19,209 nucleotides of DNA, taken from positions 1-19,209 of the forward strand of contig JBBQEB010000068.1 of assembly GCA_038320275.1 (NCBI GenBank), in the 5' to 3' direction. The DNA is from Myxococcales bacterium. GTDB taxonomy: Bacteria > Myxococcota > Myxococcia > Myxococcales > Anaeromyxobacteraceae. Position 1 is the first letter of the stretch, and each line of letters starts with the position of its first letter. Positions 14,501 to 17,500 of the stretch are shown here, piece after piece. Position numbers: made by a program.

Positions 14501-17500
14501 CGGGGCCGAGTTCGCGGTCGGGTTCGAGTTCGCGGTCGCGGTCGAGGTCGAGGTCGGAGTCGAGGTCGAGGTCGGCCTCGCAGTCGCGGTCGAGGTCGCC
14601 GCCTCCCCCTCCACCGGCAGCACCACCACCATCGCGCTCGCCTTCGCGGCGGGGTCTCCCTCCACCGTCGCCGTGAACCGGACCTGCCGGGTCGCCTGAA
14701 CCGCGGCTGGCACGAACCTGAAGGACGCGCCTCGCTCGACGGCTCCCACCGGCTCCACCCTGCCTTCGCTGGAGACGACGCGGACCCTCTCCGGCGGCAC
14801 GGGCGAACCGGCGGCGTCGTACAGGGCATGGAGCCGCACCGCGCGGACGCCGTCGCCGATCAGCGCCGGACTGGAGACGATGAGCAGGAGTCGATTGACG
14901 GGGAACGTGCCCAGGGCCACCCGGCGAACCACCGGTGCCGCGCCGCCCACGATGGTGATGGTCGCGTGGCTCGCTCCGGGAGGCGCGACGATGGGGAGAT
15001 CGACCGCGCCGCGACCCGAGGAGGTGACCGGCCCGAAGACCTCGTTCCCGACACGGCCCAGCACTGCGAGCCCAGCCGGCGCCACCACCGGGAGCTTCGT
15101 CGCACCATGCAGAGGCAGGCGCGCCAGCTCGATCTCCGACTCCCGACCTTCGAGCCAGGCGGCGATCAGCAACGTCTGGGGGTGTCGGGATGGTGGCGGC
15201 GTGTAGCGGGCGCGGTACGTCGCGGGCCCCACCCGCTCGGCATCGCCGACGGAACCCACGTTGACCGCCAGCCGAAGCGGGCGGGGCTCGCCGTCCGCGG
15301 GCTCTCGTACCTCGAGGAGGAGCGTGGCCCAGGCCGCCCTCCCCAGCACGAGCCTGCCCTCCTTCACCGAGACGGTGAGCGCGCGAGCGCCGCAGGGGGC
15401 GAGAGCGAGGAGCAAGGCCGCGAGGGCAAGCGCGAGGCGGGGTGCGTTGAAACCCGGGTTCCGGGAACGAGTCCCTGGGTCGAGAACCTCCCCCTCCATG
15501 AGCGGCTTCCACGCCTCGAACATCGCTAATGTTTCCTCGGAAGTTCGGACCCCCGGGTGCCGGGAAGGCGCCCGCGAACAGGTCCTGCGAGGACGATGAG
15601 CAAGACCGGGACCAGCTCACGGACCTCCGTGATCACCCGAGCGTCACCTTGCGGACACCCTTGGCTTCGAGCAGCCCCTTGACCCGCTCGCGGTGGTCGC
15701 CCTGGAGCGCCAGAGCGGCGTCCTCCACCGCCCCGCCACAGCCCAAGGACCGCTTCAGCTCCTCCAGCCAACGCTCTAGCTCGCGCGCGCCGAGGCCCAG
15801 CCCGTCCACGACCGTTGCCGTCTTGCCTCCCCTTCCCTTGCGCTCGAGGCGCACCACGGCGCGGGCTGGGCCACGCGCTGGTGCCGAGGGCGGTTCCGGG
15901 GGCGGTGGAGCGGCGGGGGGAGCCGAGCTCACCCCTAGCCTCCCGGCGAGGTCCTTGAACGGAGCATGGAACGGCTCCGGCGGCGGGGGTGGCGCGGGCG
16001 GGCGGCGCTTCGACATGGCCTGACGTCTCCTCGGGGCATCCTGTACGCGCGCAGCCGCGAGCGCACGCGCCGCGCCCGCCCAGCTTCCATCGAGCTGGGC
16101 CGCGCGCGCGAGGCCTTCCTCCGCCGAGGGGCCGTCCGGGACGAGGCGCTCCGCCCGATGGAGCGCGAGCTCTTCGAGCGCGAGATCCTCGAAGAGCCGC
16201 CGGGCGTCGGCGTCGTCCAGCCCGCTCGCCGCCAGGAAGCTCGCGCGGCGCCGGGGCGGCACGCCGAGCGATGCCAGCCAGCTCTGCCCGGCCGCGTCCA
16301 CGTCCACCGGCGAGGGCTGGAGCCCCAGGCTCCGCGCCAGCCCTGCCAGAAGGAGTGTGCGCTGGCCGCTCGCCGCCAGCGCCAGCGCGTCGTCCCGGGC
16401 GCGAATCGAGTCGATCACCGCCCCCGAGGAGAGGAGCGCTCCGCCGACCGTCGTGGCGCCCTGGCGCAGCTTGGCGCGGCGCACCAGGGAGGATGGACGG
16501 CGCGGGGAGGGAGAGGGGGTGAGCGGAGCTCCGGACGCGGCAAAGGCGGCCGCGGCGGCGATGGTCTTGCGGGCATCGTCGGCCTTGGGGTCGGGTGGGC
16601 CTTGCCGGACGAGCGCACGAAGCCGCTCCATGGCGCCCGCGCCGAGCCTGCCTGCCGCGGCGTCGAGGAGCGCGCGCCAGGTGCGGTCGGCGTAGTGGAT
16701 CGCGGCCGCCGCCGCGACGAGCCGCCGCGCCTCCGCGGTGGAGAGCTCTCCCTTCGCGCGCGCCGCCTCGGCGGTGAAGCGCACCTGCACGAGGGGAACC
16801 GTCAGCGGGCGGTGACCCGCGTCGGCAGGGCCGTGCAGGAGCGCGACCTCGTCGTCGCCGGTGAGCCGGCCAGCGGCAAACGCCGCGTAGATCTCCCCCA
16901 CGCCCACCATGCCGTGGACGGACAGCTCTGCCGCGCGGAGCGCCCCCATGCTGGCGCCGCCGAAGACGGCCACGCCGCCGTCGAGCGCGTCGAGCAGCTC
17001 GTGGTGCCACACCGAGGGCTCCGAGCCGAACACGCCGTCCACGAGCGCGATGGCGCGTGGCCGGAGCGTGAGCGCGCGCCACACGTCGCCCTGACGGGCG
17101 GGAGGGAGCACGGTGCAGCGCGCGATGCGCCGCGCCTCGGGCGCGGGAAGCGAGGGGCCCAGGAAGACCAGGAGCGGCGAGCTCCGCGGGGTCACAGCAG
17201 CTCCGAGAGGAGAAGCCCGGGGACGAGCACCTTCACGACGTGTACGCCGAGCGAGGGAGGGGCGAGCTCGATCGCGGCGCAGGTGCGGTGGCCGGCAGCA
17301 CGAAGGCGGGCCAGGACGAGCGCGAGGTCGCGGTCGAGGTCGGGGTCGCGGTCGGGGTCGCGGTCGAGGTCGCGGTCGAGGTCGCGGTCGAGGTCGAGGT
17401 CGCGGTCGAGGTCGCGGTCGGGGTCGGGGTCGGGGTCGGGGTCGAGGTCGAGGTCGCAGTCGGAGCGGTCCTCATGCCCGTCCCCCTCCCCGCCGCCACC

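Follow-up and report, generated by a model that had tools for sequence, protein, structure and literature searches.

A tfuA-yciH fusion beside a YcaO-TfuA pair of Myxococcales: probably an accident of gene order

In thioamitide RiPP clusters a YcaO-TfuA pair comes with a precursor, and the YciH protein of E. coli acts on the 30S subunit. Only two proteins, McrA and uL16, have been published as substrates of YcaO thioamidation; the same work names the thioamitide RiPP clusters as a class and assigns to TfuA the role of delivering sulfur rather than that of catalysis (PMC13063428). The YcaO-TfuA pair of methanogens is reported to thioamidate McrA at Gly465 (PMC5589413), and the YcaO of E. coli (EcYcaO) thioamidates the ribosomal protein uL16 at Met82 (PMC7550191, PMC13063428). 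YcaOs of the uL16 type are acidic, with a pI of about 4.4, and have no TfuA nearby (PMC13063428). A preliminary description of the locus studied here had presented ribosome-directed backbone thioamidation in bacteria as new, a claim which the uL16 publications put out of date. Our literature search gave no paper treating TfuA together with SUI1 and none on TfuA and YcaO in Anaeromyxobacter; going by titles and the openings of abstracts, none of the papers listed for myxobacterial YcaO-TfuA or thioamidation treats this system.

The window, by which we mean the whole stretch of DNA analysed, comprises 19,209 nucleotides of contig JBBQEB010000068.1 (assembly GCA_038320275.1) from a Myxococcales bacterium of the family Anaeromyxobacteraceae. 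The following features were located in it:

15633..17195, minus strand: tfuA::yciH in-frame fusion ORF of 520 aa (one open frame; domain matches)
15633..16016, minus strand: YciH moiety, 127 aa from a retained ATG at 16016 (SUI1 domain at 15654-15857)
16027..16032, minus strand: Shine-Dalgarno-like GAGGAG, 10 nt ahead of the yciH ATG and within the fused frame (pairing energy)
16041..16508, minus strand: mostly helical domain at the C-terminus of the long Myxococcales TfuA (about aa 230-385; conservation, model)
16530..17180, minus strand: TfuA catalytic fold, aa 6-222 (structural alignment; Pfam core 16680-17039)
17192..17322, minus strand: C-terminal part of ycaO, about 43 codons, ending PGLLLSELL (its TGA overlaps the GTG of tfuA in GTGA)
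17323..17462, no strand: hexamer repeat array of 22 copies, probable misassembly point
17463..19164, minus strand: 5' part of a Ser/Thr kinase gene, without the usual C-terminal PEGA-like domain (homologue comparison)

The preliminary description had placed a TfuA and a YciH/SUI1 domain in a single ORF of 520 aa, and this is borne out: the frame is open throughout, and the Pfam cut-offs are passed both by TfuA (aa 53-172, E 3.2e-42, 143.5 bits against a cut-off of 30) and by SUI1 (aa 447-514, E 1.1e-12, 48.6 bits against 25.5). It had also reported the corresponding NCBIfam matches as lying under their cut-offs, and we obtained the same for NF033432 (178.6 against 235.2 bits) and TIGR01158 (70.7 against 111.65). 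In the AlphaFold2 model of the fused ORF, whose mean pLDDT is 90.2, one can notice a linker of low confidence, at about aa 396-440, which joins the domains. The TfuA part aligns in structure with the Methanosarcina TfuA 6xp8 at a Z of 25.5 and an rmsd of 1.7 over 215 residues (Foldseek E 8.8e-17), and its conserved GASMG and KxxDA columns are intact. The ORF thus has the domain and the fold of the TfuA family (PF07812) and, as expected of this family, lies directly behind a ycaO, which it overlaps in GTGA. The YciH moiety, which is the sole yciH of the bin (one SUI1 match in the genome), matches E. coli YciH (1d1r) and archaeal aIF1 (5zcy) in structure. Compared with the YciH/SUI1 family (PF01253; TIGR01158, "stress response translation initiation inhibitor YciH"), it has a complete SUI1 domain of the expected fold, but here it closes a TfuA frame, and the N-terminal arm of the Myxococcales form is rich in Pro and carries a PFHxPF motif. 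A free-standing YciH of a relative also stays below the TIGR01158 cut-off (61.5 against 111.65 bits). This means that the low score of the window YciH reflects its clade and not the fusion.

The C-terminal domain of the TfuA part is conserved across 109 aligned homologues and confidently modelled; folded from the single sequence, it reached a pLDDT of only 47.7. It has no NCBIfam match, aa 226-392 gave no usable Atlas match, and structure searches using the whole fused model returned matches filled by the TfuA and SUI1 domains. We regard it as a candidate module that may bind the substrate or YcaO. No promoter-like or terminator-like site was found at 15400-17700.

The YcaO-TfuA pair is present in single copy in 25 of 37 genomes of the Anaeromyxobacteraceae, in 87 of 103 of the largest family and in all 5 of another; outside Myxococcales there were 3 matches. 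Of 80 genome loci, 75 have a called ycaO gene beside tfuA. Around the pair in these 75 loci, surveyed with our own gene caller for ORFs of at least 30 aa, there is no conserved precursor, protease, tailoring gene or shared small ORF, and the immediate neighbours differ by lineage (peroxiredoxin, M20 peptidase, kinase, YciH, others); a precursor encoded in trans would escape such a survey. The sole PDB sequence match of the Myxococcales YcaO is the methanogen MJ1094, no E. coli YcaO chain being matched at E <= 0.001, and the YcaOs of relatives score 89-111 bits with TIGR03266, under its cut-off of 365. Their pI has a median of 6.7 and a range of 5.2-11.4 over 78 called proteins, of which 2 come from an unrelated RiPP-like locus.

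Set beside the methanogen system (McrA Gly465; TIGR03266/NF033432; MJ1094 6pe3, MaTfuA 6xp8), the Myxococcales pair has the same adjacent ycaO and tfuA, the same short YcaO, a TfuA fold superposing on 6xp8 and the same single-copy, core-like distribution without a precursor gene. It differs in its bacterial host, where to our knowledge McrA is not to be expected, in missing both NCBIfam cut-offs, and in a TfuA which is longer by a C-terminal domain of about 160 aa and which is fused to YciH in some lineages. With the E. coli uL16 system it shares a stand-alone bacterial YcaO and the lack of a precursor peptide; unlike the YcaOs of that type, however, the Myxococcales YcaO is not highly acidic and is directly followed by tfuA. 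With thioamitide RiPP clusters it has in common the YcaO-TfuA pair and a long TfuA, but in its surroundings neither a small precursor nor a protease or tailoring gene is conserved. Judged from sequence, the Myxococcales YcaO-TfuA looks like a non-RiPP, protein-directed thioamidation system, and very probably it modifies a third protein. By what is known of these families it would work like the methanogen system: YcaO would activate a backbone amide with ATP, and TfuA would bring sulfide from a thiocarboxylated ThiS-like carrier, which would give the thioamide. It can be expected that the substrate is a cellular protein encoded elsewhere.

We then counted by hand the Anaeromyxobacteraceae genomes in which both tfuA and yciH could be placed. 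The two genes adjoin in 26 of these 51 genomes, which corrects the earlier impression, drawn from 5 of 6 loci, that they do so in nearly all of the family. Among the 26 adjacent pairs, 24 are in the -1 frame (14 with ATGA or GTGA, 3 with TGATG, 5 with longer overlaps, 2 with the start not determined), one is in the +1 frame and one is in frame but has a TAA; the spacing varies by about 70 nt, yet none is fused. Outside the family ycaO-tfuA stands beside yciH in 1 of 68 loci, L091 of another family, where yciH is divergent from ycaO; this suggests that the proximity may be old. The linkage is broken in one direction in L251, which has yciH at an M20-peptidase locus without ycaO-tfuA, and in the reverse direction in L011, L019, L026, L027 and L030. 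Hence tfuA and yciH do not stay linked across unfused lineages, as partners in a Rosetta-stone relationship should. Over the 251 genomes of the phylum, YciH was found in 175 and TfuA in 124, and of the latter only G073 is listed without YciH.

The same fusion occurs in six further protein clusters (seven with the window), two of which are made up of 18 and 12 sequences from many contigs. In a 43-row tree the 8 fused rows require 5 changes, of which at least 4 are forced by strong branches, and a single clade of fused rows is rejected (p-AU 0.0006); a 74-row tree requires 6 changes. One fused lineage (P0006, P0122, P0302 and perhaps P0010) lasted for about 0.2-0.5 substitutions per site. The fusion is therefore both recurrent, with at least four origins, and lasting, in one clade of 3-4 rows, a pattern that selection for the fusion would also give and that counts against its being a mere passenger. 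YciH is joined to other partners as well: the 16 long SUI1-type matches comprise 7 fusions with TfuA, 3 with a serine hydrolase and 1 with an outer-membrane DUF2490 protein, so that unrelated exported proteins make up 4 of the 16. A profile search for distant TfuA-SUI1 fusions gave none in the best 150 of 8509 matches (50%-identity representatives). The complex prediction of YcaO, TfuA and YciH (locus L045, with alignments) scored 0.00 twice, its controls being unfolded too, and is neutral on binding.

The start of yciH has been kept within the fused frame. The GAGGAG ahead of it has a pairing energy of -8.7 kcal/mol, a value that 3.0% of the 3000 internal in-frame ATGs compared from this genome attain; the median of 23 free yciH starts of relatives is -10.0. 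Its letters are read as AGG-AGA, two of just 5 AGR in a total of 58 Arg codons. The start Met of yciH is retained in 7 of 7 fused clusters, those other than the window being known as proteins, without DNA. Taken together, the start Met kept everywhere and the strong signal here suggest that free YciH is probably still produced, and the locus would probably yield both TfuA::YciH and free YciH.

On the other side of tfuA, the one YcaO match of the genome is, as first described, a C-terminal piece at 17213-17380 (model positions 275-324). The ycaO tail and the YcaO ends of relatives share 61-74% identity. The array ahead of it translates to Asp-Leu/Asp-Arg when read in the frame of ycaO and to Thr-Ala/Thr-Ser in that of the kinase, and a relative, L008, has an array of DRD type at the same place inside an intact YcaO. 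None of the Logan pieces listed for run X1 crosses 17323-17462, the array letters being excluded from that comparison. A kinase homologue of 93% identity (P0147) runs on past the array into a PEGA-like domain, which is terminal in 104 of 120 kinase homologues and was not found in the bin (best E 0.08). The close named homologues of the kinase belong to Polyangiaceae, at 51-64% identity; among the best matches listed from 200 other genomes of the phylum none exceeds 44%, and a search of 20 genomes of another order, run without a positive control, gave no orthologue at E <= 1e-75. Contig C281, whose first part holds a Pro-Thr array and a TPR-like region, was a candidate for the true end of the kinase; since the homologues terminate in a PEGA-like domain instead, we set it aside.

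The most likely cause of the truncation of YcaO is a chimeric join, made at the hexamer array, to a kinase gene of Polyangiaceae type. The preliminary description had given such a join as a caveat, and the kinase homologues and the YcaO ends of relatives indicate that the caveat is most likely right: the contig would be misjoined to a kinase segment that probably comes from another organism, and the ycaO of this one is probably intact in life. That ycaO was truly lost by recombination between two hexamer arrays, the fusion being part of the decay of an orphan tfuA, seems to us unlikely. A single deletion would explain together the kinase end, the phosphorylase, the M20 peptidase and the ycaO start, all of which are missing from the bin, and the 4-mer score of the kinase segment (21st percentile) lies within the range of the genome, so that composition does not separate it. 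The bin, however, reaches a completeness of 91%, spread over 343 contigs; of its 59 such arrays, 14 stand no more than 150 nt from a contig end; depth in the X1 contigs is 2.6-4.7 on the kinase side against 4.3-11.8 on the other; and no close homologue of the kinase was found in the family genomes searched. Decay is suggested by a TfuA that deviates at 11 of 152 conserved columns (median 6), but its core motifs are intact, 12 other rows of 109 deviate more or rank ahead, and the fusion is present in other lineages too.

Whatever the state of ycaO, the tfuA::yciH fusion is real. An error of sequencing or assembly in an ordinary overlapping pair was considered: none of the 26 adjacent pairs in relatives' genomes is fused, tfuA read on in the -1 frame would close with an Arg-rich tail as in relatives, and X1, the only run over the junction, probably holds the data from which the bin was made. 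It has become very improbable, since a Logan contig of X1, made by another assembler, covers 15927-17022 at a depth of 6.97 with 0 differences and 0 gaps and so spans the junction near 16016, and since the fusion recurs in the six other clusters. As to its meaning, the preliminary description had coupled the non-RiPP, protein-directed pair, a part which stands, with a Rosetta-stone link: YcaO-TfuA would thioamidate YciH, or YciH would guide the pair to the 30S subunit or a ribosomal protein, operon and fusion being the trace of this. We give this link a small chance. It can draw on the independent and partly lasting fusions, on the tight coupling of translation that 24 of the 26 adjoining pairs show, on the nesting of TfuA within YciH presence, on the divergent pair of L091 and on the precedent of a ribosome-directed YcaO (PMC13063428). 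Against it, the genes lie apart in nearly half of the family (25 of 51 genomes) and, beyond it, in 67 of 68 loci; fusion is rare among adjacent pairs; the yciH start is always retained; YciH is also joined to exported proteins; its near-universality in Myxococcales makes the nesting say little; and TfuA delivers sulfur and does not catalyse. We think it likely, rather, that the fusion is a passenger one, a tolerated accident of gene order. Much of the Anaeromyxobacteraceae would go back to an ancestor in which yciH lay directly behind ycaO-tfuA with stop and start overlapping, that is, translationally coupled; small indels or deletions would repeatedly have struck the tail of tfuA, which is basic and unstructured, and brought the two into frame, with YciH as a passenger of TfuA. 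The fusion would be tolerated because both joined ends are flexible and the Shine-Dalgarno sequence and ATG of yciH survive in frame.

The passenger reading would make the locus a clean example of how overlapping genes give rise to repeated fusions that mimic a Rosetta-stone signal, and the misjoin at the repeat array an example that mimics gene loss. If YciH, or a ribosomal protein reached through it, were the target after all, this would be the first case of the translation machinery being modified with dependence on TfuA, and a third protein-directed thioamidation system; the fusion offers YciH as a cheap first substrate candidate, on weak evidence. Most Myxococcales retain one copy of the methanogen-type YcaO-TfuA pair; the main question for the order is which protein this pair modifies, and a model organism among its members is available for finding the substrate.

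The fusion of tfuA with yciH is real, and it recurs. Two features of the window are involved:

15633-17195, minus strand, fused tfuA::yciH open reading frame of 520 open codons
17323-17462, hexamer array

As the preliminary description had it, this one frame carries a TfuA domain (residues 53-172, Pfam E 3.2e-42) and a SUI1 domain (residues 447-514, E 1.1e-12), the latter being the single SUI1 match in the source genome assembly (the bin). In the AlphaFold2 model of the fused protein (109 aligned sequences, mean pLDDT 90.2), the TfuA fold is followed by a helical domain in the middle; a linker modelled with low confidence then leads to the SUI1 fold. 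Methanosarcina TfuA 6xp8 aligns structurally with the TfuA part (Z 25.5, rmsd 1.7, 215 residues), and the C-terminal part matches the structures of aIF1 and of YciH from E. coli. A Logan contig of the sequencing run X1, which is probably the bin's own data, covers 15927-17022 at a depth of 6.97 with zero differences. The fusion is independently supported by six other fused protein clusters. Five of these (P0003-P0006 and P0010, 50-63% identity) are found among the best 120 of 972 matches, two of them with 18 and with 12 members; the sixth, the partial P0302, stems from a search for long YciH-bearing proteins. In a 43-row tree computed from the TfuA part (quick LG+G4), 5 changes are required for the 8 fused rows; strong branches make at least 4 of these unavoidable, and grouping the fused rows in one clade is rejected (p-AU 0.0006). 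In a 74-row tree (quick search), 6 fused rows require 6 changes, the rows of both trees having been picked among top matches. In one lineage (P0006, P0122, P0302 and perhaps P0010) the fusion was retained during divergence.

The fusion originated from an overlapping gene pair, the start signals of which were retained. None of the 26 adjacent pairs in relatives from the family (Anaeromyxobacteraceae) is fused: with yciH starts chosen by pattern, yciH is in the -1 frame at 24 junctions (14 ATGA/GTGA overlaps, 3 TGATG, 5 longer overlaps, 2 with start not determined), in the +1 frame at one and in frame with a TAA at one. Across these pairs, the spacing has a range of about 70 nt, which means that insertions and deletions happen, yet the overlap is mostly kept. 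At L004:2685-2695, in a relative, TAA alone separates tfuA from an in-frame yciH, one substitution away from another fusion. The methionine at the yciH start position is kept in 7/7 fused clusters. In the window, GAGGAG lies 10 nt upstream of this start (ATG 16016), with a pairing energy of -8.7 to the anti-SD motif. Of 3000 internal ATGs in this genome, 3.0% attain this value, and 23 free yciH starts have a median of -10.0. GAGGAG falls on the codons AGG-AGA, two of only five AGR among 58 Arg codons. Judging from the sequence, free YciH is probably still produced from the fused locus via internal initiation.

The linkage between tfuA and yciH is loose. In the family search (92 genomes, a stricter first look, so that its counts are a floor), 51 relatives allowed both genes to be placed; by hand count, the genes are adjacent in 26 of these and apart in 25. 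TfuA alone was matched in 5 genomes and YciH alone in 18, and one genome was unplaceable. The family order is phosphorylase, M20 peptidase, then divergent ycaO, tfuA and yciH, and this locus breaks both ways: in L251, yciH stays next to the M20 gene but ycaO-tfuA is missing there, and in L011, L019, L026, L027 and L030 ycaO-tfuA is at the M20 locus and yciH is not. At the 3' end of tfuA in another relative (L007), an ATGA overlap opens a short frame starting like YciH, possibly a relic of a relocated yciH, the intact gene being on another contig. Of the best 80 of 369 loci, title or neighbourhood places 68 outside the family; in one of these 68, yciH is near ycaO-tfuA and divergent from ycaO (L091; some flanks are short). 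YciH is matched in 175 and TfuA in 124 of 251 genomes of the phylum, G073 being the sole genome with TfuA but without a YciH match; this nesting fits a link, yet is weakly informative because YciH is near-universal in the order. In these two tallies and in the 200-genome kinase search below, one row is the unpublished genome G272, on which alone no claim depends.

As a control, 16 long YciH-bearing matches comprised 7 TfuA fusions, 3 with a serine hydrolase and 1 with an outer-membrane DUF2490. In clusters P0304, P0305, P0306 and P0309, YciH is joined N-terminally to exported serine hydrolase and to DUF2490; one member of the serine hydrolase fusions is named Vicinamibacterales. These proteins, which we regard as further passenger fusions, mean that YciH also joins neighbours unlikely to be functional partners. 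YciH acts on the 30S subunit, and the fusion had been read as a Rosetta-stone link by which YcaO-TfuA thioamidation acts on, or is steered by, YciH. Given the patchy adjacency within the family, its near absence outside and the fusions with unrelated proteins, this link is not upheld: tfuA::yciH is likely a tolerated read-through fusion, with YciH as its probable passenger, and it is improbable that YciH is the target or guide of the pair.

The sequence on the far side of the array is not natively joined to the fusion. The bin has one YcaO match, limited to the last 50 model positions, in agreement with the earlier observation. The array occupies a variable linker of YcaO, where intact ycaO genes have a DRD-type array (L008) or a PVHPE array (L006). 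In L010:2803-3953, ycaO is split (337 + 46 aa) at the variable linker holding the window's array, through either a frameshift error or gene decay. A Thr/Ala array is also normal in homologues of the overlying Ser/Thr kinase: a 93%-identical homologue passes through it into a PEGA-like end, found in 104 of 120 homologues, instead of which the window's kinase runs into the ycaO tail. Named close homologues of the kinase are Polyangiaceae; no match at E <= 1e-60 was found in 10 genus relatives, and among 200 other genomes the best matches listed do not exceed 44% identity. The depth of X1 contigs is lower on the kinase side, none of the pieces listed spans the array, and neither the kinase end, the ycaO start, the M20 peptidase nor the phosphorylase was found in the 91%-complete bin. 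A genuine deletion between two arrays is less likely than a chimeric join; the caution that the missing YcaO may reflect such a chimera is most likely correct, in view of the Polyangiaceae-type kinase, the depth drop and the unspanned array. The bin holds 59 hexamer arrays of this kind, 14 of them at contig ends, so that other genes may be mis-joined too. Two more lie in the window (13475-13561 and 14456-14598). The gene downstream of the fusion (13823-15523, minus strand) encodes 566 aa with a signal-peptide-like start and a Thr/Ser array, and no Pfam match at E <= 0.01 was found for it.

On the left, a suf Fe-S operon (3099-9371, plus strand: SufB, SufC, SufD, SufS, SufU-like, FeS assembly protein) is convergent to tfuA::yciH, with a few genes in between. 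In two relatives (L066, L067), an operon with matching gene sizes, ending with the same FeS assembly protein, closely follows yciH, which speaks for a native left part of the contig:

L067:8538-12884, minus strand, suf-like operon of L067

That the suf operon might supply TfuA with sulfur is no more than conjecture.

TfuA, mostly single-copy, is present in 25/37 genomes of this family, 87/103 of the largest family and 5/5 of another; the phylum tally has 3 matches from outside the order. In many Myxococcaceae (L205-L234), the core TfuA is accompanied by extra, higher-scoring copies (up to 5 in a genome), and at L143 several YcaO genes occur in a cluster that looks RiPP-like. With a codon-model gene caller, ycaO was called next to tfuA in 75 of the best 80 of 369 loci; the immediate neighbours vary by lineage (peroxiredoxin, M20 peptidase, kinase, others), and no small ORF common to these 75 neighbourhoods was found. 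The sole PDB sequence match of the Myxococcales YcaO is methanogen MJ1094, and the pair does not reach the methanogen equivalog cut-offs; hence it would work like the McrA system (whose thioamidation is covered in PMC5589413), yet outside that family. A new ribosome-directed thioamidation in bacteria had been proposed; PMC13063428 already reports that EcYcaO thioamidates uL16 Met82, the second protein example after MCR, a thioamide first seen in PMC7550191. According to PMC13063428, uL16-type YcaOs are acidic and have no TfuA nearby, features which the Myxococcales YcaO (median pI 6.7) lacks; one supplement of that paper mentions no Anaeromyxobacter, Myxococcus, TfuA or SUI1. Neither a TfuA-SUI1 fusion nor this Myxococcales YcaO-TfuA system was found in the literature searched, which includes few subscription journals. 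The pair is probably thioamidating, and its substrate is, as our best inference, a protein encoded elsewhere. The main interest of the locus is this order-wide YcaO-TfuA pair.
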